A stretch of 64,000 nucleotides of DNA from Dehalococcoidia bacterium (GTDB taxonomy: Bacteria > Chloroflexota > Dehalococcoidia > Lucifugimonadales > UBA2985): positions 24,261 to 88,260 of the forward strand of contig JACVQK010000001.1 of NCBI GenBank assembly GCA_015661155.1, read 5' to 3'. The translations under genes were made by a program, and so were the position numbers. Shown one piece after another: positions 4,755-63,152 of the stretch. Numbering within the stretch: position 1 is the first letter of the stretch; the number at the start of each line of letters is the position of its first letter. The notes under the pieces were generated by a model. It was not told where the DNA came from and did no database searches. It saw nothing but the letters and a program-made list of their open reading frames with translations.

Positions 4755-4907
4755 CATGAATTCATTCCAAAATCTGACCCTGGGGGAGTCCAGAGGGGCA
4801 AAGCCCCTTCTGGCGGGGGTCTGGGGGTGTCCCCCCAGATACTTTTCATTCCCCCTCTCCCCTGGCAAGGGAGAGGGGGACACAGGGGGTGAGGGTTTTT
4901 GAGATAG
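4755..4907. repeat. composite palindromic intergenic repeat (left arm A, core hairpin, right arm type 2)
   Basis: CATGAATTCATTCCAAAATCTGACCCTGGGGGAGTCCAGAGGGGCAAAGCCCC..GGGGGTCTGGGGGTGTCCCCCCAGA..CCCCCTCTCCCCTGGCAAGGGAGAGGGGG..GGGGGTGAGGGTTTTTGAGATAG. Near-copies at 39632, 13800, 57840 (reverse) and 62998 (reverse). Confidence 0.9.
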
Positions 4908-4909
4908 AT

Positions 4910-5236
4910 TCACTTCTTCCGCCTGCCGTTATGTCTCTGGCGGAGGATCAGCGCTGTTATGGCCAGGGACGATGTGAGGGGCAGGAGTCCCACCATCAGG
5001 AGTGGCCCTGCCTCCAGGAGCAGGGAGGAGCCTCCCCTGAAAGGGAGGAGAGGCAGCAGCATCCAGTACAGCCCCTGGGCGAGGAAGCTCAGGTTCACCA
5101 GGGAGAGAACCAAAACAGCTATCCTTCTGGCGGGCTGTGCGGCTGAGTAGCCGGCGAAGTGGAGGGCGTTGAAGCCCCCCGAAATAGTGGTGAGCGCTCC
5201 CTGGATGATAACCAGGGCCTGGGTAGATTCTGGCAC
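4910..5236 (-). CDS. small integral membrane protein (3 predicted TM)
   Basis: 108-aa hydrophobic ORF with GTG start. No homology recognised. Confidence 0.45.
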   Translation of the reverse strand: MPESTQALVIIQGALTTISGGFNALHFAGYSAAQPARRIAVLVLSLVNLSFLAQGLYWMLLPLLPFRGGSSLLLEAGPLLMVGLLPLTSSLAITALILRQRHNGRRKK

Positions 5237-5330
5237 GGGCTCCTCCTGCCATGGTCGTTCTCCTAACCGAGGGATTACGAGGAGGAGTGTAGGACAGATG
5301 TTCTACTTAGTCAATGGGAGGGTGGCACAC

Positions 5331-5490
5331 GTAGGGGCGATTCATGAATCGCCCCTACGACTATGCCGATTGTCACTGCACAAAGAGTGAAAATTCCTTG
5401 CGCAGCAGGTACCTTCCCCCATCGAGGGGGAAGGTTAGGATGGGGGTGAGGCCCCCACCTCAATCCTCCCCCGCAAGCGAGGGAGGAGGC
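5331..5490. repeat. cluster of short perfect or near-perfect palindromes
   Basis: 28-bp perfect palindrome GTAGGGGCGATTCATGAATCGCCCCTAC (5331-5358). Also hairpins CCTTCCCCC-ATCGA-GGGGGAAGG and CCTCCC-N10-GGGAGG. The GGGGGAAGGTTAGGATG module recurs at 16140. Confidence 0.8.
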
Positions 5491-5747
5491 CGGAGACCCC
5501 GAGAGTTCGGGGGCAGTAGCTACTGAGTCGAGGAGAGCCTTTGGACAGGGGAAGCCCAAACCCTATAAGACACGGGTCTGCCCAGATTACTGGCGCAGGT
5601 CGTCACTTTTAAACCATAGCAGGCGGCCGTCTGAAAGTTTCACTTGATACCACGCAGGGATGCATTGTAAGGCCCCGTCCTTTATGAGCACCTGGGTTCC
5701 CTGGGCTACTTGGTTATTCGTATAAGCGCTCCCTGGGAAGCAATTCG

Positions 5748-6401
5748 TCAGGTCGTCATAGCCTTGGCGTGGCCCTTGCCGCTAGCTATGTAGGCGGTGC
5801 CTAGTTGCATGGGAACCCTCCACCATTCCCACGATGCTGGTACCTGGAAGGGTGTGACTGCGTCTGATGTTAGTGTTGGCACTGTTGGTGTTGGCACGGG
5901 GTTTAGTTCAAACAGCCCAAAGGAGATAATGTCCCCATCGCGCCAGTCGTCGTAAACGTGGTAAGCGTAGTAGCCACTACCTAATGCAAGGCCAATGACG
6001 ACCACAATCAGGGCTTGAAATATCGGGCGCTGGTTAAACACGACCCGCCCAGGCCACAGCAAGGCATGGGTCACCGCGTCTCGTGTCCCTGGAGCCTTAA
6101 CCAGAAGTATCGCGAGGAGGAACAGCGCGGCGGTCCCGATATCTATGAGACGCCATATGCTGCGGGACAGGTCAATTGGGACGAAGGGGTTAAACAAGAT
6201 TGCCACAAAGACGAAAACCCCGACAGCCCAGAGTTGCCCCCACTGAAGGCCGAAAATGGCCACCAGCACAGCGGCGAATCCCGTGACCCACCGCAAAAGG
6301 GTGTAGCTATACGGCCATTCCCCCAACGCCCCCAGAAGCATGGCAATAGCTCCAAGGGCGAACAGGACTACCAGAAGCCTTTTCTGCGCGTCAGTTGACA
6401 T
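5748..6401 (-). CDS. integral membrane protein (N-terminal 4-TM region, DUF6804-like by eye)
   Basis: 217-aa ORF. WPYSYTLLRWVTGFAAVLVAIF.. is hydrophobic. Region is lower in GC than its neighbours. Confidence 0.6.
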   Translation of the reverse strand: MSTDAQKRLLVVLFALGAIAMLLGALGEWPYSYTLLRWVTGFAAVLVAIFGLQWGQLWAVGVFVFVAILFNPFVPIDLSRSIWRLIDIGTAALFLLAILLVKAPGTRDAVTHALLWPGRVVFNQRPIFQALIVVVIGLALGSGYYAYHVYDDWRDGDIISFGLFELNPVPTPTVPTLTSDAVTPFQVPASWEWWRVPMQLGTAYIASGKGHAKAMTT

Positions 6402-6465
6402 AGCCGCACCCTCCTAGACTATGTCGCCAACGGAACTCAGGCCCTGAGGACACCACGGTTACTTT

Positions 6466-6726
6466 CTACTGGGGTGTCTTCAGGCCATTCAGTCGGGCCA
6501 CAAGCCGGGACTTTCGCCGGGCGGCGTTGTTCTTGTGAATAATACCCTTGGTCGCCGCCTGGTCCAGGGCCTTCACGGCCTCTCTGGTGCTCGCCTTGGC
6601 GGCTTCCAGGTCTCCCGCGGCGATGGTTTCTTGGGCCTTCTTGACATAGGTTCTGGTGGCGGTGCGAATGGGCCGATTGTGCAGGCTTTTTGTCTCCGTC
6701 ACCCGGGCCGATTTTTCGCTAGGCAA
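6466..6726 (-). CDS. rpsT: 30S ribosomal protein S20
   Basis: TTG start with AAGGGGGA RBS. KSARVTETKSLHNRPIRTATRTYVKKA..IHKNNAARRKSRL is the S20 signature pattern. Confidence 0.9.
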   Translation of the reverse strand: MPSEKSARVTETKSLHNRPIRTATRTYVKKAQETIAAGDLEAAKASTREAVKALDQAATKGIIHKNNAARRKSRLVARLNGLKTPQ

Positions 6727-6746
6727 AGAGATTCCCCCTTTTAGCT

Positions 6747-8927
6747 TTAAGCTCTGGATTTGGATGAGACCTGGGCTTCCTCCTCGGGGGTGCTGCGGGC
6801 CACGGAGAACACCCCTTCCACCCCTTCCAACCGGGAAAAGAGCCGGCTCAGCTGTCCAACGCCGGTGGTATAGAGGGTCAGGTAAACGGAGCAGATGCTA
6901 TCCTCATGCTCCGTGCTGACCAGGGACGCGATGTTCACCTTGTCCTGGGAAACCAGGGTGGTTATATCCCTCAGCAGGCCCACCCTGTCCCACGCCTCGA
7001 TGTGGAGCCTTACGGGATGAAGGGTCTGGGTCTTCCCCCAGTTTACCTGGACCAGGCGCTCCTTCTCGTCCTCGTTCTGAATGTTGCGGCAGTCCACCCG
7101 GTGGATTGAGACCCCTCTGCCGCGTGTGATGTAGCCCACTATCGCATCTCCTGGGATGGGGTTGCAGCACTGGGAGATGCGGGTCAGCAGGTCTCCTACT
7201 CCCAGCACCTCTATCCCAGAAGAAGGCCACGAGAGGGGAAGGGAGGGGGTGTGCTCCATGGGGGGCGGTTCCTGCTGGGCGGCGAGCTTGGCGGTTACGA
7301 GGGCGATGCTCACGCTGCCGCTTCCCAGGGACGCCAGCAGCTCCGCTCCACTGTCGAACTTGAGGAGAGTGGCCACCTCTTCCTCGTTCATCTTCAGGCT
7401 CAGGCGTCGCAGCTCCTTGTTCAGCAGCTCCCTGCCCCGTTGGATGTTGACCCCCCGCTCCTGCTTGCGGAACCACTGGCGTATCTTCTCCCGGGCGTTG
7501 GCGGTGTTGACATAGCCCAGGTTGGTGTTGAGCCAGTCCAGGCTGGGCCCCCGGGCTACTTTGGTGATGAGGATCTCCACGGTGTCCCCGTTTTTCAGCT
7601 GGGTGTACAGGGGCACCAGCCTGCCGTTCACCTTGCCCCCGATGCAGCGGTGCCCCAGGTCGGTGTGGATGCGGTAGGCGAAGTCGATGGGAGTGGAACC
7701 CGCGGGCAGCTCCTTGATCTCTCCCTTGGGGGTGTACACGAAAACCTGGTCCTGGAAGATGTCCATCTTCACCGAATCGAGGAACTCCGCCGCTCCGGTG
7801 ACCTCCCTCTGCCAGTCCAGGAGCTGCCTCAGCCAGCTCATCTTCTCCTCGAAGTGCGGGTCTTTGGTATCTCCCTCCTTGTATCTCCAGTGAGCGGCCA
7901 CGCCGTACTCCGAGACCTGGTGCATGTCGTAGGTACGGATTTGGACCTCTAGGGGGATGTTCGGCAGGTACATCACCGAGGTGTGGAGCGATTGGTACAT
8001 GTTTTCCTTGGGGCTGGCTATGTAGTCATCGAACTCCCCTGGGATGGGATGCCACAGGCTGTGGATCACTCCCAGGGCGCTGTAGCAGTCCTGAATTTCG
8101 TCGACCAGGATTCTGAGGGCGAAGAGGTCGTAAATCTGCCCAAACTCCTTGCCCTGTTGGGCGTACTTCTCCATCTTCTGGTAAATACTGTATATGTGCT
8201 TTGCCCTTCCCGTAACCTCGGCCTTTACCCCTGCCCTGGTCAGCTCCTCCCTCAGCACCTCGCATATCCGGTCGACGTACTCTTCCCGCTCCTCTCGCTT
8301 GGTTGCCAGGAGGAGGGAGACCTTCCGGTACTCAGTGGGTTGCAGGTAGCTGAAGGCCAGGTCCTCCAGTCGCCATTTGATGTCTCCTATTCCCAGTCGG
8401 TGGGCCAGGGGCGCGTAGATTTCCAGCGTCTCCCTGGCTATGGCGGCCCTCTTCTCGGGAGTGTGAGCCTGGAGGGTCTGCATGTTGTGGAGGCGGTCCG
8501 CCAGCTTGATCAGGACCACCCTTATGTCCTGGGCCATGGCCACCAGCATCTTGCGAAGGCTCTCCGCCTGGCCGTCTTCGTAGCCGTGTCTTATGCCGTC
8601 CCCGGCAACCATCAAATCCATTTTGCTCAGCTTGGTAACTCCGTCTACCAGCTGGACAACCTCTACCCCAAACCTCTGCTCCATCTCCCCATAGCTTACG
8701 CTGCAGTCCTCCATCACATCGTGGAGGAGGGCTGCCACCAGGGTGGCGGTGTCCAGGTGAAGGTCCGCCAGGAAGAGGGCGACGTGCACCGGGTGCTCCA
8801 CGTAGGGTTCGCCGGAGAGGCGCGTCTGCCCCTGGTGGGCCGACTGGGCGAAGCGGTACGCCTGGTCGATTAGCTCCACCTTGTCTGGAGGCAAATAGCT
8901 CTTGGCTGTGGTGAGGAGGTCCTTCAT
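6747..8927 (-). CDS. relA: bifunctional (p)ppGpp synthetase/hydrolase RelA/SpoT family
   Basis: ORF trimmed to MKDLLTTAKSYL at 8927. HD domain (HPVHVALFLADLHLD..LLHDVMED), synthetase domain (YQSLHTSV), and TGS and ACT regions. 726 aa. Confidence 0.95.
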   Translation of the reverse strand: MKDLLTTAKSYLPPDKVELIDQAYRFAQSAHQGQTRLSGEPYVEHPVHVALFLADLHLDTATLVAALLHDVMEDCSVSYGEMEQRFGVEVVQLVDGVTKLSKMDLMVAGDGIRHGYEDGQAESLRKMLVAMAQDIRVVLIKLADRLHNMQTLQAHTPEKRAAIARETLEIYAPLAHRLGIGDIKWRLEDLAFSYLQPTEYRKVSLLLATKREEREEYVDRICEVLREELTRAGVKAEVTGRAKHIYSIYQKMEKYAQQGKEFGQIYDLFALRILVDEIQDCYSALGVIHSLWHPIPGEFDDYIASPKENMYQSLHTSVMYLPNIPLEVQIRTYDMHQVSEYGVAAHWRYKEGDTKDPHFEEKMSWLRQLLDWQREVTGAAEFLDSVKMDIFQDQVFVYTPKGEIKELPAGSTPIDFAYRIHTDLGHRCIGGKVNGRLVPLYTQLKNGDTVEILITKVARGPSLDWLNTNLGYVNTANAREKIRQWFRKQERGVNIQRGRELLNKELRRLSLKMNEEEVATLLKFDSGAELLASLGSGSVSIALVTAKLAAQQEPPPMEHTPSLPLSWPSSGIEVLGVGDLLTRISQCCNPIPGDAIVGYITRGRGVSIHRVDCRNIQNEDEKERLVQVNWGKTQTLHPVRLHIEAWDRVGLLRDITTLVSQDKVNIASLVSTEHEDSICSVYLTLYTTGVGQLSRLFSRLEGVEGVFSVARSTPEEEAQVSSKSRA

Positions 8928-9059
8928 CTTGTATAGCCGAAAACCGATGGGTTTACAAAGGAAGTATAACCAACTATCTCTCTTCCTGCAATTATCTCGC
9001 CTTGGCAAACCCTCTCCCGTGGGTTATCCTTCTCTCTGAGCGCTGGAAGGAGGTGCACC

Positions 9060-10310
9060 TTGTATCGCGCGCCCAGGGGAACAGCGGACGTTCTGCCGGA
9101 AGAGCAGGGGTACTGGCGCTACATAGAGGCCAGGGCCAGGGCCCTGGGGCAGCGCTTTGGCTACCAGAGGCTTGACACCCCCGTGTTCGAGCAGACCGCC
9201 TTGTTCGTGCGAGGCGTGGGCCAGGGCACGGACATAGTGGAGAAGGAGATGTACTCCTTCTTGGACCGCGGTGGCGACTCCATGACCCTGCGCCCCGAGG
9301 GCACGGCTCCTGTCTGCCGGGCCTACCTGGAGCACGGCATGCACAACCAGCCTCAGCCGGTGCGCCTGTACTACTTCAGCCCCGCCTTCCGCTACGAGCG
9401 TCCCCAGGCGGGGCGGTTCCGACAGCACCATCAGTTCGGCGTGGAGGCCCTGGGAGACGGCGATCCCTCCGTGGACGCCGAGATTGTGGAGATGGCATGG
9501 CGTTTGATGGAGGACCTGGGCCTGAGAGACCTCACATTGCTCCTCAATAGCATAGGCGACTCAGAGTGCAGACCGGCCTACCTGGAGCACCTCAGGGCCT
9601 ACTACGCGTCCCGGGTTGAGCGCCTCTGCCAGGACTGCCGGGGGAGATTGGAGCGCAGTCCCCTGCGGCTTCTGGACTGCAAGCAGGAGGCGTGCCAGGC
9701 CCTGGCTCAGGAGGCCCCCCGTTCCATAGATCACCTCTGCCATCCGTGTCGGGACCACTGGGAGGAGCTGATGAAGTGCTTGCGGAGGCTGGACATCCCC
9801 TTCCGGGTGGAGCCCAGGCTGGTGCGTGGTCTGGACTATTACACCCGTACCGTTTTTGAGATTCAGCCTCCGGAGGAGAGGGCCCAGAGCACCCTCTGCG
9901 CAGGAGGGCGCTACGACGGGCTTATTCAGGAGCTGGGAGGCCCTCCTACGCCGGGTATCGGCTTTGCCGCGGGCATGGAGCGCATGGTCTCCAACGTCAA
10001 GGGCCAGGGGGTGCCTGTGCCCCAGGAGGAGTCCGTAAGGGTGGTCATAGCCTATCTGGGGGATGAGGCCAAGGGGGAGGCTCTCTCCCTGGCCTCTCAG
10101 CTGAGGAGCAAGGGTATAGGAGCAGTCCTGGCCCCCGCCGGCAAGAGCCTGCGGGCCCAGATGCGCTATGCCAACTCCCTGGGGGTGTCCTACGCCCTGA
10201 TCCTGGGGGAGGAGGAGATGAGAAGCGGCTCTGCGCTCCTTCGCGACATGGCGAAGGGGGAGCAGAGGGTGGTGCCCCTTCAAGGAGTGGCAGAGGAGCT
10301 AGCCAACTAG
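9060..10310 (+). CDS. hisS: histidine--tRNA ligase
   Basis: TTG start after GGAAGGAGG. MYRAPRGTADVLPEE..LRPEGTAPVCRAY..YYFSPAFRYERPQAGRFRQHHQFGVE are class II HisRS motifs. Confidence 0.95.
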   Translation: MYRAPRGTADVLPEEQGYWRYIEARARALGQRFGYQRLDTPVFEQTALFVRGVGQGTDIVEKEMYSFLDRGGDSMTLRPEGTAPVCRAYLEHGMHNQPQPVRLYYFSPAFRYERPQAGRFRQHHQFGVEALGDGDPSVDAEIVEMAWRLMEDLGLRDLTLLLNSIGDSECRPAYLEHLRAYYASRVERLCQDCRGRLERSPLRLLDCKQEACQALAQEAPRSIDHLCHPCRDHWEELMKCLRRLDIPFRVEPRLVRGLDYYTRTVFEIQPPEERAQSTLCAGGRYDGLIQELGGPPTPGIGFAAGMERMVSNVKGQGVPVPQEESVRVVIAYLGDEAKGEALSLASQLRSKGIGAVLAPAGKSLRAQMRYANSLGVSYALILGEEEMRSGSALLRDMAKGEQRVVPLQGVAEELAN

Positions 10311-10317
10311 CAGGCTG

Positions 10318-10472
10318 CCGAAAAAGGGGGAGTGCAGAGGGGCGCAGCCCTTTGCCGAGGGTCTGGGGGTGTCCCCCAGACTGGGCTTGGCCCAGACCCA
10401 CACCTTACGAACCGTAGAATATGGTCAGACCAGACCTGCAATAGTTGAGTGTGGGTGCAGGGCACGTCCTGC
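10318..10472. repeat. composite intergenic repeat (left arm B, core hairpin, inner module 1)
   Basis: AAAAAGGGGGAGTGCAGAGGGGCGCAGCCC..GAGGGTCTGGGGGTGTCCCCCAGA-CTGGGCTTGGCCCAGACCCACACCTTACGAACCGTAGAATATGGTCAGACCAG..GAGTGTGGGTGCAGGGCACGTCCTGC. Near-copy at 51866. Confidence 0.9.
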
Positions 10473-10762
10473 TAGCATTTGCCCCTGGCGACCACCTTTT
10501 CGCAGGGGCTGGAAGGCCATACCTCTACGCTACCAGCTTGGGCAAAGGGCGACATGTACTCCCGCACCTTGTCGGCGTTCTCTGCCTCAAGGAACAGGTA
10601 GAGGGTGTGGCGCCCGTCCAGGACGGCCTCTCCCTTGATCTTGACGCCGAATTTGGCCGCGTTGGCCGCGGACAGGTGCTTCAAGAGCATGGGGGCCATC
10701 TGGGGATGGCCCGCGGGGCAGCCCTCGGCGGGATGCTGGTGTTGCACTACGAACATAGACAT
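10472..10762 (-). CDS. conserved-looking small Cys-containing protein, function unknown
   Basis: ATG at 10762 with AAGGAG RBS. MSMFVVQHQHPAEGCPAGHP... 96 aa. Confidence 0.55.
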   Translation of the reverse strand: MSMFVVQHQHPAEGCPAGHPQMAPMLLKHLSAANAAKFGVKIKGEAVLDGRHTLYLFLEAENADKVREYMSPFAQAGSVEVWPSSPCEKVVARGKC

Positions 10763-10869
10763 ATCGTCTCCTTTATAAGCAGCTTCAACTTTCGGGTGCA
10801 TTTTCGCACAGCACCCATTGTGCTTCTATTGTAGTTCTGGGTAGGCAGGAGCGTCAACCGACGGGCTGC

Positions 10870-11622
10870 TTACAGCCCCTGGATGGCCCTTCGTTGTGCT
10901 TCGAGGTGGTGTGCAATGCCTCTCTCCGCGAGGGATAGCAGCCCATCCATGGTGGCCCTGGAGAAGGGCTTTCCCTCGGCGGTGCCCTGCACCTCCACCA
11001 GCTCCCCCGCCTCGGTCATAACCACGTTGAAATCCACCCCCGCGCGGGAGTCCTCGTCGTAGCAGAGGTCCAGGGCCATCTCCCCATCCACCACCCCAAC
11101 GCTTATCGCGGCCACCGCCTCTCGGAGGGGGACGGAGGGGATGACGCCTGTCCTGACCATGTGCAGCATGGCCTGGTAGAGGGCCACGTAGGAGCCGGTG
11201 ATGGCGGCGGTGCGGGTCCCACCGTCGGCTTGTATCACGTCGCAGTCCATGACCAGGGTACGTTCTCCCAGGGCCTCCATATTCGTCACTGCCCGCAGGG
11301 AGCGGCCAATGAGGCGTTGTATCTCCTGGGTACGGCCGTCGACCTGGCCCGAATCGCCATTTCTGGGCCTTCGGGTCAGGGTGGAGCGGGGTAGCATCCC
11401 GTACTCCGCGGTTACCCACCCCTTTCTCTGCCCCCGCAGGAAGTTCGGCACTCGCTCCTCCAGGGATGCGGTGCAGATGACCCTGGTCTCCCCCACCTCT
11501 ATCAGGACGGAGCCTTCCGGAAACAACAGGTAAGACGGGGTTATCTTCACCTTACGGGGCTCGTCGTTGGCCCTGCCATCTGCTCTGAACAATAGCCCTC
11601 CTTTTGTCCCTATCCTGCCCAT
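10870..11622 (-). CDS. rph: ribonuclease PH
   Basis: [55 protein letters not shown] is the RNase PH pattern. Start set at MGRIG (11622); exact start uncertain. Confidence 0.9.
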
Positions 11623-11671
11623 GCCAGTATACCACCCCGGTGAATCGGGGCATCTCAGTTCGCCCATTAAC

Positions 11672-11860
11672 AGGGTGAGGGAAAAGGGGGAGTGCAGAGG
11701 GGCGCAGCCCCTTTGACGGGGGTTTGGGGGTGTCCCCCAGATTCAAATTCCTCCCCCCTTCCTGGCCAGGAAGGGGGCCAGGGGGATGGTCGAAAGGGTT
11801 TTCCAACACTCTGATAATGTCTCTGAGAAGTGTGGGTGCAGAGCTCGCACTGCCTCCCGC
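11672..11860. repeat. composite intergenic repeat (left arm B, core hairpin, right arm type 1, fragment of inner module)
   Basis: GGGAAAAGGGGGAGTGCAGAGGGGCGCAGCCCC..GGGGGTTTGGGGGTGTCCCCCAGATTCAAATTC..CCCCTTCCTGGCCAGGAAGGGGG..GGATGGTCGAAAGGGTTTT..GTGTGGGTGCAGAGC. Confidence 0.9.
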
Positions 11861-11940
11861 AAGGTGGACGTCTTGCCAGAGGCTCCGCTATACTGGTCTG
11901 GAGCGTTACTCTCTCCTGCTTGTACTCATGGAGGCTGGCA

Positions 11941-13248
11941 GTGGCCGAGATACAACCCTTCAAGGGAATACGTTACAACCCCCAGCTAGCCAGTAACCTG
12001 GAGCGACTGCTGTGCCCTCCCTACGACGTCATCACGCCGGAGCAGCAGCGGGAGCTGCACAACAGAAGCCCCTACAACGTCATCCGCCTGGAGCTGGGGA
12101 TGAGCCAACCCTCGGACTCCGATGGGGCCAACCGCTACACCAGGGCCGCCGCCCTGCTGGAGGAGTGGCTGGGCCAGGGGGTACTGGTTTCTGAGAAGAA
12201 GGCCGCCTTTTATCTCCTCCAAGAGGAGTTCCCCCATCTGGGTCGTGTCAGGACCCGCCGCTCCCTGCTGGCCAGGGTGCGACTGGAGGACTTCTCCCGC
12301 AGAGTGGTCATCCCTCACGAGGAGACCTCCCAGGGGCCAAAGAGGGACAGGATGGAGCTGCTGAAGGCCACCAGGGCCAACCTGAGTCCTATCATGGGCA
12401 TATACCGCGATCCCTCTGGAGACCTGAGCGCCCTCCTGGGCAGGGCGATGGCGGGACCTCCCCTGGTACGCGCCGATTACGGTGACTCCCATATACGATT
12501 GTGGGCTCTCGCTGAGGAGGGGGCCATGGAGGCGATTCGAGGGTCGCTGAAAGACGCTCCCGTCTTTCTGGCCGATGGGCATCACCGGTACGAAACGGCC
12601 CTCCTCTACCGGGACATTCAGAGGGCCAGAGGGGGAGCACGGGACGGAGAGGACGGCCACGGCTTCGTCATGATGACTCTCACGGAGATAAGTGACCCCG
12701 GGCTGCTCGCCCTCCCGTACCATCGCCTGGTCAGGGGTCTGTCCCCCGGGGAACTGGAGAGGGTGGTGGCGCTGGCGAAGAAGACCTTTGCCCCCATCTC
12801 TCTGGCTGCCAAACCTGGCCTTGACGACGAGGCTGCTCTTCACCTGATGGAGCAGCTGGAGGGCGTTGCCAGGACGCAGGTGGCCCTTGGCCTGCTGGAG
12901 CACGGCGCTGAGGGGGCCTCCATCCTCGCTCTACGAGGCTCCCCGGGGGCTTCATCCTCTCCCCTGGAGCGGTGCGCCACCTGGGTTCTGGCGAAGAGGG
13001 TGCTGGAGCCTGGGTTGAGGAGTCAGGAAGAGGCCGTGGAGAGAGGGATTCTGCGCTTCACGCCCGATCCCCAGGAGGTCTACCGTCTGGTGAGAGGCGG
13101 TGACTTTCAGATGGGTTTCCTTCTCCCTCCCCTGGATATGGACCTCTTCGAGGAGGTGGTGCTATCTGGAGAGCGGATGCCCCTCAAGTCCACCTACTTC
13201 ACTCCCAAGCTGCCCACCGGGCTGGTGATAAACCGCCTGGTGGGATGA
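11941..13248 (+). CDS. DUF1015 family protein
   Basis: GTG at 11941 with GGAGG 7 nt upstream. AEIQPFKGIRYNPQ..LLCPPYDVITPEQQREL..ADGHHRYETAL is typical of DUF1015. The upstream part of the tracked ORF lies inside a repeat. Confidence 0.85.
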   Translation: MAEIQPFKGIRYNPQLASNLERLLCPPYDVITPEQQRELHNRSPYNVIRLELGMSQPSDSDGANRYTRAAALLEEWLGQGVLVSEKKAAFYLLQEEFPHLGRVRTRRSLLARVRLEDFSRRVVIPHEETSQGPKRDRMELLKATRANLSPIMGIYRDPSGDLSALLGRAMAGPPLVRADYGDSHIRLWALAEEGAMEAIRGSLKDAPVFLADGHHRYETALLYRDIQRARGGARDGEDGHGFVMMTLTEISDPGLLALPYHRLVRGLSPGELERVVALAKKTFAPISLAAKPGLDDEAALHLMEQLEGVARTQVALGLLEHGAEGASILALRGSPGASSSPLERCATWVLAKRVLEPGLRSQEEAVERGILRFTPDPQEVYRLVRGGDFQMGFLLPPLDMDLFEEVVLSGERMPLKSTYFTPKLPTGLVINRLVG

Positions 13249-13255: not shown

Positions 13256-13380
13256 GCATGGTGTTTTAAAACCCCCTTCGACCATCCCCCTAGCCCCCTT
13301 TCTGGACAGGAAGGGGGAAGAGTTTAAATCTGGGGGACACCCCCAGACCCCCGGCGGGGGCTTCGCCCCCTGCACCCCCA
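13256..13380. repeat. composite intergenic repeat, reverse orientation (right arm type 1, core, left arm B-like)
   Basis: ..CCCTTCGACCATCCCCCTAGCCCCCTTTCTGGACAGGAAGGGGGAAGAGTTTAAATCTGGGGGACACCCCCAGACCCCCGGCGGGGGCTTCGCCCCCTGCACCCCC. Confidence 0.9.
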
Positions 13381-13389
13381 TATGTTGCT

Positions 13390-13799: not shown

Positions 13800-16053
<2,254 letters not shown>

Positions 16054-22031: not shown

Positions 22032-22523
22032 CTACGGAGTGAGAGGGAGGCGCTTGGCCCCATCCTCTCCATCGAAAATCTCCCCGTCCTGTTTGTAGCG
22101 CTTGAGGAGAAAGTGGGTGGAGGTTCCCCGTACCTCCTCCAGGGCGGCCAGCTTCTGGGCCACGAAGTTGGCCACCTCTTTCATGCTCTTTCCCGCGAGA
22201 AGCACCGAGAGGTCGAAGTCCCCCGACACCAGGTGGAGGGAGCGCACCTCTGGAAACCGGGCTATTCTCTGGGCCACACTATCAAAGCCCACATCCCGCT
22301 GGGGAGTGACCCGTATCTCCACCAGGGCCAGCACCTCCTCCGTGCCGGCGCGTTCCCAGTTGATGAGGGTTTTGTACTTCACTATTATCCTGTCCCGCTC
22401 CGCCGCCGCAATGGTTCCCTTTACCTCCTCCTCTGGCACACCCGTCATCTCGGAGATCTCCTGGGGTGTTGCCCGGGCGTTACGCTCCAGAATGTCCAGG
22501 ATCTCTGTTCTAACGTCTCTCAT
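22032..22523 (-). CDS. Lrp/AsnC family transcriptional regulator
   Basis: Trimmed to MRDVRTEILDILERNARATPQEISEMTGV (HTH) plus a C-terminal RAM-like domain. The ATG at 22523 lies inside the duplicated gatA tail. Confidence 0.9.
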   Translation of the reverse strand: MRDVRTEILDILERNARATPQEISEMTGVPEEEVKGTIAAAERDRIIVKYKTLINWERAGTEEVLALVEIRVTPQRDVGFDSVAQRIARFPEVRSLHLVSGDFDLSVLLAGKSMKEVANFVAQKLAALEEVRGTSTHFLLKRYKQDGEIFDGEDGAKRLPLTP

Positions 22524-22980
22524 AGCTTCGGCCTCTTCTTGTGCCACTCTGTGGCCTGCTCATAGGTTGGTTACTATTCTCTAAAACCTCTACTTCGCTG
22601 GTCTTATCGCTCTTTAGATTGACCAATGCCCCGAATTGATACTGCAATGGTTCTCTGAACCAATCGTACTTGATCTTTTGGTAATCGCTCTCGATATCCT
22701 GTGGCCCACCATCTTTCTTGACTTCAATAACCAGGAAGTTGCGCTCGTGAGAGCCGCGTTCGTGGAAGATAATGTCAGGGCGCTTATTGTGGTAGCTTCC
22801 TTTCGTTATTTCTAAATCACAATCGTAGTCGCGTAGCAGCTTATGAACCTCGTTCGCGTAGTGGTGAGCCAGATTCCATTCAGTATTCCCTGATTCGGAA
22901 GTAAAATCGTAGATATTGGGCTGATTTTGAAATAGCGATTCCGCCGCTTGCCTTAATAGTATTTGAACCTCTTCATTCAT
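22510..22980 (-). CDS. PD-(D/E)xK nuclease-fold protein (standalone, 156 aa)
   Basis: Motif arrangement D..RPDIIFHERG..NFLVIEVKK (PD...ExK). Low GC. The C-terminal tail is read from the duplicated gatA segment in another frame. Confidence 0.6.
   Translation of the reverse strand: MNEEVQILLRQAAESLFQNQPNIYDFTSESGNTEWNLAHHYANEVHKLLRDYDCDLEITKGSYHNKRPDIIFHERGSHERNFLVIEVKKDGGPQDIESDYQKIKYDWFREPLQYQFGALVNLKSDKTSEVEVLENSNQPMSRPQSGTRRGRSYERR
22519..22567. repeat. 49-bp direct repeat, copy A (vestigial gatA 3' end fused to the lrp start)
   Basis: CTCATAGCTTCGGCCTCTTCTTGTGCCACTCTGTGGCCTGCTCATAGGT. It differs at 2 positions from copy B at 23164-23212. Confidence 0.9.
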
Positions 22981-23000: not shown

Positions 23001-23158
23001 CTAGCAGGGTGTTGAAAAACCCTTTCGACCATCCCCCTGGCCCCCTTCCTGGCCAGGAAGGGGGAAGAGTTTGAATCTGGGGGACACCCCCAGACCCCCG
23101 CCAGAAGGGGCTTTAGCCCCTCTGGATTCCCCTTTTTCTGCTAGTCTGTTCATAGGGT
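23001..23158. repeat. composite intergenic repeat, reverse orientation (right arm type 1, core, left arm)
   Basis: ..GAAAAACCCTTTCGACCATCCCCCTGGCCCCCTTCCTGGCCAGGAAGGGGGAAGAGTTTGAATCTGGGGGACACCCCCAGACCCCCGCCAGAAGGGGCTTTAGCCCCTCTGGATTCCCC. Confidence 0.9.
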
Positions 23159-32204: not shown

Positions 32205-32343
32205 ACAGGGTGCTGAAAAACTCCTCCGACCATCCCCCTAGCCCCCTTCCTGGCCAGGAAGGGGGAGAATTTGAATCTGTGGGACACCCCCAGACCCCCG
32301 TCAAAGGGGCTGCGCCCCTCTGCACTCCTCCTTTTTCATCAGC
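32205..32343. repeat. composite intergenic repeat, reverse orientation, inside the ccm transcription unit
   Basis: ..CCTCCGACCATCCCCCTAGCCCCCTTCCTGGCCAGGAAGGGGGAGAATTTGAATCTGTGGGACACCCCCAGACCCCCGTCAAAGGGGCTGCGCCCCTCTGCACTCCTCCTTTTTC. Confidence 0.9.
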
Positions 32344-32346
32344 CTC

Positions 32347-32943
32347 CTAAAACTCACGCAGGGCAGCTTCAACAAAGAATGTCCCGCTGTCCCCTGGAGG
32401 CGTAATCCAGATGACCTGGGCATCGCTCTGGAAGAAGAAGTAGTGGGCGTTGTTGCCATCGCTGACGGTGAAGACACGCCGCCCGGCAAGACTCAATTCC
32501 CGCAGGTTGGAGAAGGGGGTCCCGCCCTCTCCGATGGCCTGGGCCATGGCCTCCAACTGCTCCCGGGCGGCGTCGGGCGACGTAGCGGTCCCGGCCCAGA
32601 CAACCCCGCCCTGCTCGTAGTAGGCCACCCTCGCCTCGGTGAGCTGGGGGGACCCCTCCTGGTGCAGCCCCGCCACCATCTGAAGCGCCTGGGGGCCTTC
32701 CACCGTGCTGAGGAGTCTGAAGCCTCCTATCTCCTCCGGGATGGCGCTGGCCTGGGGCAGCCGCTGGACGACGCCCCAGAGGCCCGCCGCAACGACTGCA
32801 ACTATTAGCACAAAGAAGCCCATCTGAGCTGCTTGGAATGAGCTCTTTGCCCGCCGCGCCGGGGCGCTTCTAACCTGTCGAGGGGCAGGTGGCATGGGCA
32901 ATCTCTGTTCATTAGCAGGAGGAATGCTTGTGTTCACAGTCAC
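32347..32943 (-). CDS. membrane-anchored hypothetical protein
   Basis: 198 aa. Basic N-terminus, one TM (FFVLIVAVVAAGLWGVV), then a soluble domain. Start codon uncertain (see shared promoter motif). Confidence 0.6.
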   Translation of the reverse strand: MTVNTSIPPANEQRLPMPPAPRQVRSAPARRAKSSFQAAQMGFFVLIVAVVAAGLWGVVQRLPQASAIPEEIGGFRLLSTVEGPQALQMVAGLHQEGSPQLTEARVAYYEQGGVVWAGTATSPDAAREQLEAMAQAIGEGGTPFSNLRELSLAGRRVFTVSDGNNAHYFFFQSDAQVIWITPPGDSGTFFVEAALREF

Positions 32944-39631: not shown

Positions 39632-39790
39632 ATGAACTCATCCCAAAATCTGACCCTGGGGGAGTTCAGAGGGGGCAAAGCCCCTTCTGGCGGGGGTCTG
39701 GGGGTGTCCCCCAGATACTTTTCTTCCCCCTCACCCTGGGTAAGTGAGAGGAGGGGGAAACAGGGGGTGAGGGTTCTTGGAATAGCTCTA
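39632..39790. repeat. composite intergenic repeat (left arm A, core, degenerate right arm type 2)
   Basis: ATGAACTCATCCCAAAATCTGACCCTGGGGGAGTTCAGAGGGGGCAAAGCCCC..GGGGGTCTGGGGGTGTCCCCCAGATACTTTTC..GGGGGTGAGGGTTCTTGGAATAG. Confidence 0.9.
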
Positions 39791-44020: not shown

Positions 44021-44288
44021 CAGGGCGAGCCCCTTCGGCAGGCTCAGGACAGGCTCTGCACCCACATTCCTCAGAGGCATTCATAGACGAGCCGAATTCA
44101 GGGTCTGTGAGATGTGGGTCTGGGCTGTGCCCAGGCAGGGCGTGCCCTGCACCCATACTCAACTGTTGCTGCGCTGGTCTGACCATCCTTCAGATGAAGG
44201 ACGGTTCGTAAGGTGTGGGTCTGGGCCATGCCCAGTGGAGGACATCCCCAGACCCCCGCCATGGTCAGGTTTTGGGATGAGTTCATGT
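44021..44288. repeat. composite repeat, reverse orientation: inner modules 2 and 1 side by side, degenerate core, left arm A
   Basis: ..CTGCACCCACATTCCTCAGAGGCATTCATAGAC..GAGATGTGGGTCTGGGC.. then GCAGGGCGTGCCCTGCACCCATACTCAACTG..GGTCTGACCAT..CGTAAGGTGTGGGTCTGGGCC.. then GGACATCCCCAGACCCCCGCC then GGTCAGGTTTTGGGATGAGTTCATG. Confidence 0.9.
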
Positions 44289-51865: not shown

Positions 51866-52118
51866 CCGTACCGAACAGGTTGATGAAAAAGGAGGAGTGC
51901 AGAGGGGAGGGCTCCCATCCAGTGGATGGGAATCCCTTTGCCGAGGGTCTGGGGGTGTTCCCCAGACTGGGCTTGGCCCAGACCCACATCTTACGAATCG
52001 TAGAACATGGTCAGACCAGCACAGCAATAGTTGAGTATGGGTGCAGGGCACGTCCTGCCCCTTCCTGGCTAGGAAGGGGGACAGGAGGATGGTCGAAAGG
52101 GTTTTGAGAGCACCCTGT
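51866..52118. repeat. composite intergenic repeat (left arm B, core, inner module 1, right arm type 1)
   Basis: GATGAAAAAGGAGGAGTGCAGAGGGG..GAGGGTCTGGGGGTGTTCCCCAGA-CTGGGCTTGGCCCAGACCCACATCTTACGAATCGTAGAACATGGTCAGACCAG..GAGTATGGGTGCAGGGCACGTCCTGC-CCCTTCCTGGCTAGGAAGGGGG..GGATGGTCGAAAGGGTTTT. Confidence 0.9.
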
Positions 52119-57778: not shown

Positions 57779-57839
57779 GATAGCTGGATGATAAGAGGCT
57801 TCAAGGGACAAAGTCAACCCTGGCCCTAGAAGCTGTTGG

Positions 57840-57975
57840 GAAAACCCTCACCCCCTGTGTTCCCCTCTCCCTTGCCAAGGGAGAGGGGGAGGAAAAGGAA
57901 TCTGGGGGACACCCCCAGACCCCCGTCAGAAGGGGCTTCGCCCCCTCTGCACTCCCCCAGAACAGCATTTACGAA
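57840..57975. repeat. composite intergenic repeat, reverse orientation (right arm type 2, core, left arm B)
   Basis: AAACCCTCACCCCCTGTGTTCCCCTCTCCCTTGCCAAGGGAGAGGGGGAGG..AATCTGGGGGACACCCCCAGACCCCCGTCAGAAGGGGCTTCGCCCCCTCTGCACTCCCCC. Confidence 0.9.
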
Positions 57976-57982
57976 CACCCTG

Positions 57983-59890
57983 CTAGGCGCTGGGTCTGGC
58001 GGCGGGAGAGGGGGAGACCTCGTCCTGGAAGTTCATGGCGTAGAGCCTGGTGTACAGGCCGTCCTTGGACAAAAGCTCCTGGTGCCTCCCCATCTCCACG
58101 ATGCGGCCCTTGTCCAAGACCACTATCTTGTCGGCGTCCTGGATGGTGGAAAGGCGGTGGGCGATGATGATGGCCGTGCGGCCCCGCAGAAGCTCCTTGA
58201 GCGCCTCCTGGATCAGGCGCTCCGTGTAGCTGTCGACGTTGGCCGTGGCCTCGTCCAGGATCAGGATGCGCGGGTTAGCCACCAGGGCTCGGGCAAAGGC
58301 GATGAGCTGCCGCTGGCCTACGCTCAGGTTGCTGCCACGCTCGTGGAGCACCGTATCGTAGCCTTCAGGAAGCCTCATGATGAAATTGTGGGCTCCCAGG
58401 GCCCTGGCGGCCTGCTCTATCTCCTCCTGGGTCGTCTCTCGACGCTGAAAGCGGATGTTCTCGGCCACGGTGGTGGAGTAGAGGAATGGCTCCTGGAGCA
58501 CCATCCCCATCTGACGGGCCAGAGAGTCGCGGGTGATGTGACGCAGGTCGTACCCATCCACCGCAATGCTCCCCTGGCTGACGTCGTAGAACCGCGCGAC
58601 CAGGGCGACCAGGGTGGTCTTGCCCGCGCCCGTGGGCCCCACTATTGCCACCTTCTCCCCAGGGGAGATGTTCAGCGTCACGTCGTGGAGCACCTCCACC
58701 TCCTGGTTGTAGGAGAAGGAGACGTGCTCCAGCTTGAGGTCGCCCTTGATGGGAGGCAGGACCTGGGCGTCGGTCGCATCCACCAGGTTCGGCTTCACGT
58801 CCAGCAGCTCGAAAATCCTCATGCCTGCCGTCATGGCTCGCTGGAGCATGGCGTACTGCATGACCAGGGCGCGGATGGGCTCGAAAAAGCGCTGCACGTA
58901 CAGGGTGAAACCGATCATGGTTCCGATCTCCAGGGCTCCCCTCTGCTCCATCCTGCCCCCGAAGACGATGACGATCCCGAAGGAGATGGCGGTGAGAACC
59001 TCTACGGTGGGCATGAGGCCGGCGGTCAGCCGCAGGGCGTTGAGGTTGGCCCGCAGGTGTCCGGCGTTCACCTCCTGGAACTGGCCCAGGTTGATCTGCT
59101 CCCGGTTCAGGCTCTGGGTCACCCGCACCCCGGAGATGTTCTCCTGGAGACTGGCGTTGACCCCGGAGATGGCGTAGCGAATCTGCATGAAGGCCCGTCG
59201 GGCACGGGTCTGCCAGAAGACCATGGCCACCACGAAGACCGGTATGACAGAAAAACAGATGAGCGCCAGCTGGAAGTTCCAGAGCAGCATCAGCACGATG
59301 ATGCCGAAGAGGCTCAGAATCTCGGCAATACCCACGGCGAAGATTCCCATGAACTCCTGAAGGGCCAGGGCGTCGTTCTGCACCCGGCTCATCAGTCGGC
59401 CCACCTCGTTGTGGTCGTAAAAGAGGACGGAGAGGCGCTGTAGATGGGCGTGCATCTCCGTGCGCAGCCGGTACAGGAGCGCCTGGTTGATCCTGGCCAG
59501 CCCTCTCAGGTGGATGTAGTTCCCCGCCAGGTTGGCCACCACCACGGCGGCGAACAGCATACCCACCCTGTCCAGGCCCGAGACGTCGCCCTTTCGGATG
59601 TAGTCGTTAATGGCCATGCCAACGAGTCGGGGCACCAGAAGCTGGGTAAGGATGTACACCAGCATCGCCAGCATGACCAGGAGGGTCAGCTTCCAGTGAG
59701 GCTTCAGGTAGCCCAGGAGCCGCAGGATGACGCGCTGGTCGTAGACCTTGCCAAACTCCACGTCATCCAGGACCAGGCTGAGATGACCCCGGGCCCTGCG
59801 TACCTCCGCGGCGTTCCCCGGGAGGTTCAGGTTCCCCCCGTGACCACCCCCCCCGTGCCCCCCCCAGCCGCCGCCGCCACCGCCCCACAT
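57983..59890 (-). CDS. ABC exporter, fused permease/ATPase (type I exporter half-transporter) with Gly/His-rich N-terminal extension
   Basis: 6 TM plus NBD (GPTGAGKTT, LSVGQRQLIAFARAL, ILILDEATA). N-terminus MWGGGGGGWGGHGGGGHGG. Confidence 0.9.
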   Translation of the reverse strand: MWGGGGGGWGGHGGGGHGGNLNLPGNAAEVRRARGHLSLVLDDVEFGKVYDQRVILRLLGYLKPHWKLTLLVMLAMLVYILTQLLVPRLVGMAINDYIRKGDVSGLDRVGMLFAAVVVANLAGNYIHLRGLARINQALLYRLRTEMHAHLQRLSVLFYDHNEVGRLMSRVQNDALALQEFMGIFAVGIAEILSLFGIIVLMLLWNFQLALICFSVIPVFVVAMVFWQTRARRAFMQIRYAISGVNASLQENISGVRVTQSLNREQINLGQFQEVNAGHLRANLNALRLTAGLMPTVEVLTAISFGIVIVFGGRMEQRGALEIGTMIGFTLYVQRFFEPIRALVMQYAMLQRAMTAGMRIFELLDVKPNLVDATDAQVLPPIKGDLKLEHVSFSYNQEVEVLHDVTLNISPGEKVAIVGPTGAGKTTLVALVARFYDVSQGSIAVDGYDLRHITRDSLARQMGMVLQEPFLYSTTVAENIRFQRRETTQEEIEQAARALGAHNFIMRLPEGYDTVLHERGSNLSVGQRQLIAFARALVANPRILILDEATANVDSYTERLIQEALKELLRGRTAIIIAHRLSTIQDADKIVVLDKGRIVEMGRHQELLSKDGLYTRLYAMNFQDEVSPSPAARPSA

Positions 59891-61694: not shown

Positions 61695-61759
61695 AACCCT
61701 TCGGTTTCCATACTATCTCGAAAGGTGCAGGGGGTCAATAGTTTGCGTGGCAGGTCTTC

Positions 61760-61786
61760 TTGTGTTATGAAACATGGGTGTATAAT
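61760..61786 (+). promoter_or_regulatory. candidate sigma-70-type promoter for cvpA
   Basis: TTGTGT-N15-TATAAT about 40 nt upstream of the ATG at 61828. Confidence 0.35.
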
Positions 61787-61827
61787 CGCGCTTGTGTAAT
61801 CGCAGTTAGCAGAGGGAGCAGAGAGAT

Positions 61828-62445
61828 ATGAACTGGCTTGACATCGTCATCATAGCTGCCTGGGCTCTTGGCCTCTTTATCGGTTGGCGAATGGGGCTCT
61901 TCGGAGCCATCTTCACCACCGGCGGCCTCATCGCGGGGGTCCTTCTGGCGGCGCGCTTCAGCGATAACGTGGCGGGGCTCCTCACCGACTCCATCTCCAG
62001 CGATACCCTGGTCACTGTCATCTCCTATGCCATCATCATTGTCCTGGTCTTCATAGCGGCCCAGCTCCTCAAGGCCATGGTAAAAGGCATCTTCAAGCTG
62101 GTCCTTCTGGGCTGGGTGGATAGCCTGGGGGGGCTGGCCCTGGGCCTGGTGGCGGGAGTGGCCCTGTCGGGTGCCATCATCATGGGGCTGGCCAGATACT
62201 CCAGCGACCTGCCCGTGGAGCTGCTGGAGGAGTTGACTGGAGCAAGCTACCTTGACATTCCCATCGAGAGGACCGGGATACAGGAGAAGCTGAACACCGC
62301 TTTGGTGGAGTCTACCCTGGTTCCAGTCTTTCTGGATGTCAGGGATGCCCTGCCCGGTGAGGCCACGGGTCTTGTTCCCGATGACTTCAGGCTGGCCCTG
62401 GACGTTCTGGAAGCCCAAATAGCGGGAGCAGAGGAGAGGAAGTAA
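61828..62445 (+). CDS. cvpA: CvpA family membrane protein
   Basis: MNWLDIVIIAAWALGLFIGWRMGLF.. 4 TM, typical CvpA N-terminus. Confidence 0.85.
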   Translation: MNWLDIVIIAAWALGLFIGWRMGLFGAIFTTGGLIAGVLLAARFSDNVAGLLTDSISSDTLVTVISYAIIIVLVFIAAQLLKAMVKGIFKLVLLGWVDSLGGLALGLVAGVALSGAIIMGLARYSSDLPVELLEELTGASYLDIPIERTGIQEKLNTALVESTLVPVFLDVRDALPGEATGLVPDDFRLALDVLEAQIAGAEERK

Positions 62446-62463
62446 ACCCCCAGGAAGTCCCCC

Positions 62464-62973
62464 ATGATCAGCGCGCCTGTCCTCTTGCTGAACCAGAACT
62501 ACGAGCCCCTTAACCTGTGCACGGTGCGCCGGGCGGTGGTCCTGCTGGATGGGGGCAAGGCAGAGCTCCTGGAGAACGGCCGGGGGGAGATCAAGACCCC
62601 TTCTCGCGCCGTTCCCATCCCATCGGTGATACGGCTGGTGTACCTGGTCAGGCGTCCCCTTATTCAGCGGAGGCTATCTCGCAAGGAGGTTTTTCTGCGG
62701 GACAAGCACACCTGCCGCTACTGTGGCCGTGAGACCAAGCAGCTCACTCTGGACCACGTCATGCCCCGCTATCGGGGAGGAGCTCACTCCTGGGAGAACG
62801 TGGTCAGCGCTTGTGTATCCTGCAATCACCGCAAGGCGGGGCGCACACCGGAGGAGGCGGGTATCAAGCTAGTAGGAGAGGTGCGCTCCCCCCGGGCAAA
62901 CCCGTACTCTATGTTCCTTCAGCGACCCCTTCAGGATGAATGGCACAGGTTCCTCCCCTGGTTGGACAGCTAG
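62464..62973 (+). CDS. HNH endonuclease
   Basis: CRYCG..LTLDHVMPRYRGGAHSWENVVSACVSCNHRK (HNH with CxxC pairs). Confidence 0.85.
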   Translation: MISAPVLLLNQNYEPLNLCTVRRAVVLLDGGKAELLENGRGEIKTPSRAVPIPSVIRLVYLVRRPLIQRRLSRKEVFLRDKHTCRYCGRETKQLTLDHVMPRYRGGAHSWENVVSACVSCNHRKAGRTPEEAGIKLVGEVRSPRANPYSMFLQRPLQDEWHRFLPWLDS

Positions 62974-62997
62974 CAGGGCGTAAAAGCCCTTGCCAGT

Positions 62998-63152
62998 GCA
63001 TAGAGTCTATCTCAAAACCCTTACCCCCTGTGTCCCCCTCTCCCACACTGCGGGAGAGGGGGAAGAGGATTGAATCTGGGGGACACCCCCAGACCCCCGC
63101 CAAGGGGCTTCGCCCCTCTGGACTCCCTGGAGGCCCTTTTGAGATAGTTTCA
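62998..63152. repeat. composite intergenic repeat, reverse orientation (right arm type 2, core, left arm A-like)
   Basis: CTATCTCAAAACCCTTACCCCCTGTGTCCCCCTCTCCCACACTGCGGGAGAGGGGGAAG..AATCTGGGGGACACCCCCAGACCCCCGCCAAGGGGCTTCGCCCCTCTGGACTCCC..TTTTGAGATAG. Confidence 0.9.

Follow-up and report, generated by a model that had tools for sequence, protein, structure and literature searches.

The short palindromic repeats that recur between the genes of the window, by which we mean the whole 64,000-nucleotide stretch of a Dehalococcoidia bacterium genome analysed here (GCA_015661155.1), are in all likelihood non-coding MITEs (miniature transposable elements with inverted repeats) of IS5 type: three GC-rich hairpins enclosed by IS5-type ends and set into 4-bp target duplications. 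The organism is a member of the Chloroflexota without a close sequenced relative (best DUF1015 match 68%, best CcmF match 85%). A sequence-only reading of the window had proposed that the repeats are non-autonomous and mobile; their terminal inverted repeats (TIRs), the target duplications, the sites that are filled here and empty in relatives, and the lack of coding capacity bear this out.

Every repeat contains a core hairpin, TCTGGGGG-TGT-CCCCCAGA. The 24-nt core sequence GGGGGTCTGGGGGTGTCCCCCAGA has 11 matches at up to 3 mismatches on the two strands of the window and none in 100 dinucleotide-preserving shuffles of it; with a twelfth, degenerate copy near 44225, these are the twelve copies located by the sequence-only reading. 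Self-BLAST places every core inside a 120-240-nt block common to up to 11 other sites in the window, and together with a covariance model it delimits 12 composites of 133-263 nt (Table 1). The covariance model finds 11 of the 12, each on a single defined strand, at 35-140 bits. The earlier count of at least 14 composite loci was too high: the remainder are fragments, among them a partial copy of module X (11814-11858) and a 27-nt mini-module standing free at 54262-54288 and 63198-63224, both modules being described below. The elements make up 3.4% of the window and, on rough gene calls, about 19% of its non-coding DNA. As had been claimed, all 12 lie between genes, once two open reading frame (ORF) starts that previously ran into repeats are corrected (ccmE to 32188, ligA to 14038).

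A typical unit is 130-160 nt long and non-coding, and consists of a TIR, hairpin A, the core hairpin, an AT-rich spacer, hairpin C, a G-rich stretch (AGGGGGATGGTCGAAAGGG) and the opposite TIR; elements are longer where other modules are nested inside, sizes ranging overall from 122 to 263 nt, and frame-breaking indels and base-pair covariation show that they have no coding capacity. The TIRs are 15-19 bp long and had been overlooked, as had module X and the 4-bp flanking duplications. The commonest pair is CAGGGTGCTGAAAAA...TTTTTCAGCACCCTG, and the consensus drawn from the window and dozens of copies elsewhere is CAGGGTGCTGAAAAAGG on the left and its reverse complement CCTTTTTCAGCACCCTG on the right. 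The left and right arms had been quoted correctly. The accompanying idea that modules are shuffled stands for nested insertions into loops and spacers but not for the arms, which are not free: the two arms numbered 1 occur together, and so do the two numbered 2, since each pair is part of a subfamily with a TIR of its own. That of the arm-2 subfamily is (CATG)AACTCATCCCAAAA...TTTTGAGATAG. In a raw listing, made without alignment, the hairpin A position is taken by CCAGAGGGGC/GCCCCTTTGG, GCAGGA/TCCTGC or CCAGTCCCGA/TCGGGACTGG, and the hairpin C position by CCCCCTTCCTGG/CCAGGAAGGGGG, CCCCCTCTCCC/GGGAGAGGGGG or TCCCCCAAG/ATTGGGGGA; in some species a G-tract run, GGGCGGGCGGGTGGG, replaces hairpin C. 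Module X, about 95 nt long (CTGGGCTTGGCCCAGACCCACAC...GTGTGGGTGCAGGGCACGTCCTGC), lies between core and hairpin C in c2, c5 and c10 and occurs twice in c9, and a mini-module of about 25 nt (AGCCTGTCCTGAGC...CGAAGG) is nested in hairpin loops in the window and in other genomes.

Two side observations concern these modules. In the form CCCTGAGC-N4-6-CGAAGGG, the mini-module accounts for the two free-standing fragments given above and is found further at 44032-44055 and within the 87-nt repeats described below. The G-tract run is present at hairpin C in many other Dehalococcoidia genomes (L012, L023, L030, L035, L056, L064, L068, L070, L081, L097, L099 and others), and GGGCGGGCGGGTGGG and similar runs are textbook G-quadruplex motifs by sequence.

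The flanks of the elements carry the signature of transposition. Among 27 full-length type-1 copies, the 4-nt left flank equals the right flank in 11, against 3.1 expected when right flanks are permuted, and only about 1 in 100,000 permutations reaches 11 matching pairs. Nine of the 11 matches are non-palindromic direct repeats (CTAA, TTAG, TTAT, CTAC, TGTA) and none is inverted; because they are direct and never inverted, they are not part of the TIR. Most of the remaining type-1 pairs agree at 3 of 4 positions, and the window itself has four perfect duplications and four more that agree at 3 of 4 positions. Type-1 copies flanked by CTAG, CTAA, TTAG, TTAT or CTAC conform to a 4-bp YTAR-type duplication, and copies with other TIR variants have CTAG, TAAG and CATG duplications.

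Empty sites in two relatives are further evidence of transposition. In the first relative (JACPQL01, GCA_016190445.1, here L108) CcmF is 85% identical to the window protein, and the DNA of ccmE-ccmF-ccmH agrees at about 82%. At the c7 locus it reads ...GAGCTTTAGGAGGGGAGGATG, where the window has ...GAGTTTTAG(141-nt c7)TTATAGGAGATGGAATG; the insertion turned one TTAG into two, of which the left keeps the stop codon of the upstream gene and the right precedes the ccmE ribosome-binding site. The second, a Joint Genome Institute (JGI) metagenome contig (L105), is syntenic with window positions 11856-24651 at 77-85% DNA identity, and neither nhmmer nor the covariance model detects an element in its 21 kb, whereas the syntenic stretch of the window has c4, c5 and c6. 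Its DUF1015-ligA spacer measures only 138 nt, where that of the window has about 790 nt, and the ligA start has a single GCCATG within the empty site ...accaGCCATGactgac, as compared with CATG(232-nt c5)CATG in the window, where the second ATG of the duplication is the ligA start codon. The reverse case also occurs, L108 and L010 having elements at sites that are empty in the window. The comparison of filled with empty sites in relatives, which had been put forward as a check on mobility, has thus yielded a single target copy at both loci, ccmE in L108 and the ligA start in L105.

The ends point to a partner. At least 120 metagenome loci have the end sequence not followed by the G-run of the MITEs, with many unrelated interiors, and in at least 11 of these loci an ORF beginning MRG lies 70-95 nt past the end. 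Nine of the ORFs are complete (360-388 aa), and seven of the elements are complete insertion sequences of 1.27-1.38 kb, which close with an inverted copy of this end that adjoins a CTAG. The 18-nt end TAGCAGGGTGCTGAAAAA is identical at 18/18 positions between the MITEs and the metagenomic insertion sequences. Two of the MRG ORFs were scanned; both contain Pfam domains DUF772 and DDE_Tnp_1, and they score 262 and 278 bits on the NCBIfam model NF033581, 'IS5 family transposase' (cut-off 140). IS5 of E. coli makes a 4-bp duplication at YTAR (PMC5009759), and IS711, an IS5-related element, also targets YTAR (PMC2266754). IS5-type ends together with this insertion signature therefore indicate IS5-family enzymes.

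Table 1. The twelve elements of the window, with their build, 4-nt flanks and surroundings
Copy	Position	Strand	Build	Flanks (left / right)	Surroundings
c1	4759..4910	+	type-2: TIR AATTCATTCCAAAA.../...TTTTTGAGATAGATT, hairpin A, core, hairpin C2 (CCCCCTCTCCC/GGGAGAGGGGG)	CATG / CACT	
c2	10311..10471	+	type-1 left TIR, hairpin A, core, module X; right terminus is the module X end ...GTCCTG	CTAG / CTAG	left CTAG includes TAG stop of hisS (9060..10310)
c3	11671..11813	+	full type-1, 143 nt; covariance model 140 bits	TTAA / ATAA	between divergent RNase PH and DUF1015 genes; module X fragment directly after
c4	13257..13389	-	type-1, left TIR decayed	CTAG / CTTG	directly past DUF1015 stop codon; missing at syntenic L105 site
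c5	13805..14036	+	type-2, module X between core and hairpin C	CATG / CATG (perfect duplication)	right CATG carries ligA start codon (14038)
c6	23005..23140	-	type-1, left TIR with 7-nt deletion	CTAG / CTAG	in ~600-nt insertion (22568-23160) absent from L105
c7	32206..32346	-	full type-1, 141 nt; covariance model 139 bits	TTAG / TTAT	within ccm gene cluster; left TTAG includes stop codon of gene 32347..32823; right flank precedes ccmE ribosome-binding site and ATG at 32188
c8	39635..39788	+	type-2	TATG / TATA	between FtsX/MacB permease and histidine-kinase genes
c9	44021..44283	-	rearranged composite: type-2 left TIR, without hairpin A, degenerate core, two tandem module X copies, 24-nt mini-module within last hairpin	CATG / CTAC (no match)	adjoins endonuclease III stop codon
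c10	51876..52117	+	type-1, 30-nt insertion in hairpin A, module X between core and hairpin C	CGAA / TTAA	between DNA polymerase III delta' gene and PSP1-domain gene
c11	57830..57982	-	TIR variant 3 (CAGGGTGTTCGTAAA.../...TTTTCCCAACAGCTT), type-2 interior	CTAG / CTAG	left CTAG includes TAG stop of ABC transporter gene 57983..59890
c12	63003..63149	-	type-2b (TIR AACTATCTCAAAA.../...TTTTGAGATAGACTC)	no recognisable duplication	between HNH endonuclease gene and thiamine pyrophosphate (TPP) riboswitch upstream of thiG

By Pfam names, the genes beside the elements are hisS, RNase PH, DUF1015, ligA, AsnC, gatA, ccmE, ccmF, FtsX/MacB, histidine kinase, endonuclease III, DNA polymerase III delta', PSP1, UbiA, ABC transporter, HNH endonuclease and thiG; the TPP riboswitch (63319-63433) lies 170 nt from c12. 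The copy that had been placed inside the ccm transcription unit is c7. YTAR sites are distributed unevenly in the window, at 2.2 per kb of coding and 7.2 per kb of non-coding or boundary DNA, many of them provided by stop codons, and the duplication contains the stop codon of the upstream gene in c2, c7 and c11 and a start codon in c5. A crude gene call for other genomes puts 94 of 101 elements between genes, without a bias in orientation.

The modules are not confined to the window, a point that the sequence-only reading had singled out for checking. The 22-nt core occurs at 104 or more loci in a one-genome-per-species collection; about 45 genomes are represented among the matches listed, nearly all of them metagenome-assembled genomes (MAGs) that bear a Chloroflexota or Dehalococcoidia label. 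They stem from marine and soil samples, groundwater, Lake Baikal and the Black Sea, and two are complete chromosomes. The window has 12 copies in 64 kb, and the covariance model has 111 hits in the loci fetched. Compared with the copies in those genomes, whole composites show 85-93% identity; the sole long coding match to the window in that set is 78% identical.

The exact 22-nt core is also found, as a separate matter, in about 10 Streptomyces genomes among the matches listed (L024, L038, L050, L076, L077, L082, L091, L093, L094 and L104 among them) and in other Actinomycetota (L045, L065). Ten exact 22-mers in Streptomyces are beyond chance. These copies are without the Chloroflexota arms, are usually followed by AA(A/G)CACAGC and in several cases seem to interrupt coding sequence, for example in a gene of SMR/SugE type behind a guanidine-III riboswitch (L050) and an acyl-CoA synthetase gene (L091).

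Orientation relative to transcription shows no bias, with 19 sense and 15 antisense copies between tandem genes and 38 against 28 beside 3' ends, and elements are more frequent in divergent (17) than in convergent regions (8). No U-tracts follow the hairpins, the core of c1 alone qualifying, weakly, and terminator-like sites are not enriched, with 10 found and 13.5 expected across 4500-24400. Transcription termination and mRNA 3' end protection, both suggested originally as possible roles, are therefore dropped as primary explanations, neither orientation nor position relative to genes being biased.

We propose that an IS5-family DDE transposase encoded elsewhere would act in trans by binding both ends of an element, which would then be cut out or copied and inserted into a 4-bp target, preferably YTAR (CTAG, CTAA, TTAG), with duplication of the target on both sides. 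The interior (hairpin A, core and hairpin C) would be a cargo that has no relation to the parent insertion sequence and whose pairing is kept by compensatory changes. In the genome of the window organism, which is 62% G+C, genes contain few TA-containing tetranucleotides, whereas stop codons and intergenic DNA are rich in them, so the elements land at gene ends; selection against insertions inside genes would complete this bias. Because the duplication regenerates the stop codon, and in one case the start codon, the neighbouring genes survive, including those around the insertion in the ccm cluster. The elements constitute an undescribed family of an ordinary type of mobile DNA and involve no new mechanism; searches of a paper library by topic and by literal sequence found no description of this MITE family, for which Rfam has no model either.

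Several observations weigh against so simple an account. A tblastn search with 11 IS5 transposases against the window and 108 Chloroflexota loci (about 0.8 Mb) that surround other copies gave no match, and Pfam scans of 60 window ORFs revealed no transposase of IS5 or Y1 type, only an rve_3 integrase fragment (42324-42647); the window thus has no cognate transposase, as first stated. Among homologues of one of the metagenomic transposases, the sole organism-labelled one carries the label Methylomirabilota, not Chloroflexota. Pairs of TIRs 0.7-3 kb apart were sought in the Chloroflexota loci, where orphan TIR-like matches proved to be coding sequence or other MITE copies, and no insertion-sequence partner was found for TIR variants 2 and 3. 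With no transposase homologue in the window or the Chloroflexota loci, and the named one in another phylum, it is from the ends and target sites that we infer movement of these copies by an IS5-family enzyme. Type-2 copies have CATG or TATG targets rather than YTAR. Copies within the window are 11-32% diverged from each other and so give no sign of current activity. They are alike at most at 89%, copies from other species are 87-89% similar to them, and flanking genes are 74-85% identical between species, below the similarity of the elements; simple neutral decay of dead copies does not predict equal similarity within a genome and between species. Finally, a plain MITE model accounts neither for an interior better conserved than the ends nor for one interior combined with several TIR variants.

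These last points also count in favour of the leading alternative, which we consider unlikely and which would supplement the MITE interpretation rather than replace it: the three-hairpin interior may be a selected structural device, of the host or of the element, for which IS5-type ends are only the vehicle, the elements persisting since the interior does something. Possible modes are an RNA processing or stability element in read-through transcripts and a DNA cruciform or protein-binding palindrome. When 111 copies are aligned to a four-helix model, 91.5% of cells are standard pairs, compared with 76% after shuffling and about 60% with partners slid, changes on both sides are seen in 40 of 43 modelled base pairs, and pairing stands at 95-98% in the interior helices and at 79% in the TIR stem (helix 1), although the alignment was fitted to the model, so that these figures lean towards it. 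Several TIR variants share this architecture, in which different hairpin sequences can take up a given position, and the raw listing above, made without alignment, points the same way. On the top strand, hairpin A has 56 G:T pairs to 15 A:C pairs, a suggestive asymmetry that is due mostly to a single inherited column. That the core looks invariant is in part ascertainment, because the core served as the search query; one copy found through its TIR rather than its core has the compensated core TCTGAGGG/CCCTCAGA. Folding energy is ordinary for base composition (z = -1.0 to -1.5 for whole elements in single-sequence folding, -3.4 for module X alone); shuffled G-runs and C-runs fold well too, which makes single-sequence folding uninformative at the level of the whole element. 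No element reaches a gathering score in Rfam 15, where matches at E up to 1 are sub-threshold and at chance level. The lack of orientation bias relative to flanking genes, of U-tracts and of an enrichment of terminator-like sites also tells against a selected device, as do insertions polymorphic between relatives, from which it follows that no individual copy is required.

That the interior is genuinely functional seems to us, on this evidence, rather improbable, and a shade less probable is the more specific proposal that the interior, above all the nearly invariant core TCTGGGGG-TGT-CCCCCAGA, might be a module targeted by a conserved protein or nuclease, as DNA or as read-through RNA, and riding interchangeable IS5-type ends, by means of which it would have spread among Dehalococcoidia and Chloroflexota related to them. 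Were this so, the family would be a cargo-carrying MITE, with the cargo and not the ends as its conserved unit.

Far weaker is the other half of the sequence-only reading, that the repeats resemble repetitive extragenic palindromes (REPs) or bacterial interspersed mosaic elements (BIMEs) spread by REP-associated tyrosine transposases (RAYT; Y1 HUH), or else IS200/IS605-type elements recognised as single-stranded hairpins. The GC-rich hairpins with tri-nucleotide loops (GAA, GCA, TGT), a mosaic make-up that recalls BIMEs and the slight excess of G:T over A:C on one strand count in its favour, but neither REPs nor IS200/IS605 elements make 15-19 bp TIRs with 4-bp direct target duplications, no conserved GTAG or CGTC tag stands beside the core (the preceding bases vary: GAC, GGC, GCC), no Y1 transposase appeared in the Pfam scans of the 60 window ORFs, and the ends are identical to those of insertion sequences with an IS5-family DDE transposase. 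We therefore think it very unlikely. That the recurrent short ORFs encode real small proteins, or that the blocks are assembly artefacts, is scarcely credible, since the peptides recurring in six-frame translation, held to be spurious from the start, come from copies in both orientations with indels that are not multiples of three and with compensatory, paired rather than codon-wise variation. The many copies at contig ends elsewhere are expected from short-read assembly of a dispersed repeat; copies also lie within long contigs and in complete chromosomes that independent projects produced, and they have clean junctions against empty sites.

Other features of the window were recorded in passing. 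A phage-like stretch on the minus strand (412-4014) has a portal gene of SPP1 type (412..1776), a sigma-70 region 4/helix-turn-helix gene (2307..2597) and a 461-aa ORF without Pfam match, and may be a prophage remnant ending just before c1. Between c4 and c5, a 76-aa ORF without Pfam match (13390-13620, minus strand) is absent from the corresponding L105 spacer. Between ligA and pth the window has about 1.7 kb more than L105, with a 706-aa ORF weakly matching DUF6079 (16107-18227) where L105 has a 124-aa gene; a 95-nt 'tRNA-Lys' called by ARAGORN at 16106-16200 overlaps the start of this ORF and is doubtful, with no Rfam call. The insertion that carries c6 (22568-23160), missing from L105, in which AsnC adjoins gatA, lies between the two copies of a directly duplicated 53-nt stretch of the gatA 3' end (22515-22567 = 23161-23212). 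It also carries a low-GC ORF without Pfam match (22510..22980, minus strand), whose ...PDIIFHERG...NFLVIEVKK looks, by eye, like a PD-(D/E)XK nuclease motif.

Further along, a pair of 87-nt inverted repeats (43028-43114 / 44315-44401) brackets a tRNA-Gly gene (43217-43291), the endonuclease III gene and c9, with the rve_3 integrase fragment, on the minus strand, just upstream; the segment between the repeats could be invertible or rearranged. A region of lower G+C content (45095-48615, 57%) contains a series of ORFs with Big_1/PKD domains and internal repeats of 64-116 nt, which may together form a single large gene for a surface protein, interrupted by frameshifts. Another inverted-repeat element, of 113 nt and unrelated to the family (53068-53180; GTCATTCCGA...TCGGAATGAC) is, with its flanks, 82% identical to L105 14440-14660 in a different gene context, and looks like another small mobile or structured element; similar interiors (GTCATTCC...) occur in metagenomic MITEs with the same IS5-type ends.

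The practical consequences of the family are mainly for assembly and annotation. In the window it takes up about one fifth of the non-coding DNA and gives rise to spurious ORFs and wrong gene starts, as with ccmE and ligA, which had been over-extended. With many copies at contig ends, it breaks short-read assemblies of Chloroflexota MAGs. Gene calls throughout a poorly cultured class would become cleaner with a covariance model of the family. Biologically, the family illustrates how an IS5-type YTAR preference directs insertion, where the genome is GC-rich, towards stop and start codons, and how the duplication repairs them, so that an element can sit inside an essential gene cluster. A hairpin interior that is kept better than the transposase-binding ends, and that differs no more between species than inside one genome, poses a modest, testable question about the role of MITE cargo.

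Several known repeat families resemble these elements in part. REPs and BIMEs lack TIRs and target duplications, carry GTAG or CGTC tags and depend on a Y1 transposase (PMC3733652). As in the enterobacteria and pseudomonads that harbour them, GC-rich extragenic palindromes occur here in mosaics and in both orientations; the window elements differ in having TIRs and duplications and in being without the tags. The Correia elements of Neisseria (NEMIS, Neisseria miniature insertion sequences; CREE, Correia repeat enclosed elements) are abundant, intergenic units of 100-160 bp with TIRs and stable hairpins, often co-transcribed with their neighbours; they make a TA duplication, fold as a single long TIR hairpin and are not known outside one genus. 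The window family is like them in being short, abundant and intergenic, with TIRs, a TA-containing target duplication and stable hairpins, and may be likened to them in abundance and co-transcription, but it has a 4-bp duplication and three separate interior hairpins, and it extends to about 45 species-level Chloroflexota genomes among the matches listed. BOX elements of Streptococcus pneumoniae place a variable number of structure-forming units between conserved end modules, and to our knowledge neither a cognate transposase nor a defined target duplication has been demonstrated for them; the likeness lies in the modular build, and neither they nor the Correia elements are related in sequence to those of the window. 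Tourist-like MITEs (PIF/Harbinger) are eukaryotic, belong with a transposase superfamily related to IS5 and have TA-rich duplications (3 bp, TAA/TTA), and their non-autonomous, TIR-bounded copies far outnumber their parents; unlike the window elements, they are not known to have a conserved multi-hairpin interior. From IS5-family insertion sequences themselves (NF033581; DUF772 with DDE_Tnp_1) the elements differ in having no transposase gene, an unrelated interior and, in some subfamilies, CATG-like targets, while the 18-nt end, the 4-bp duplication and the YTAR target are common to both.

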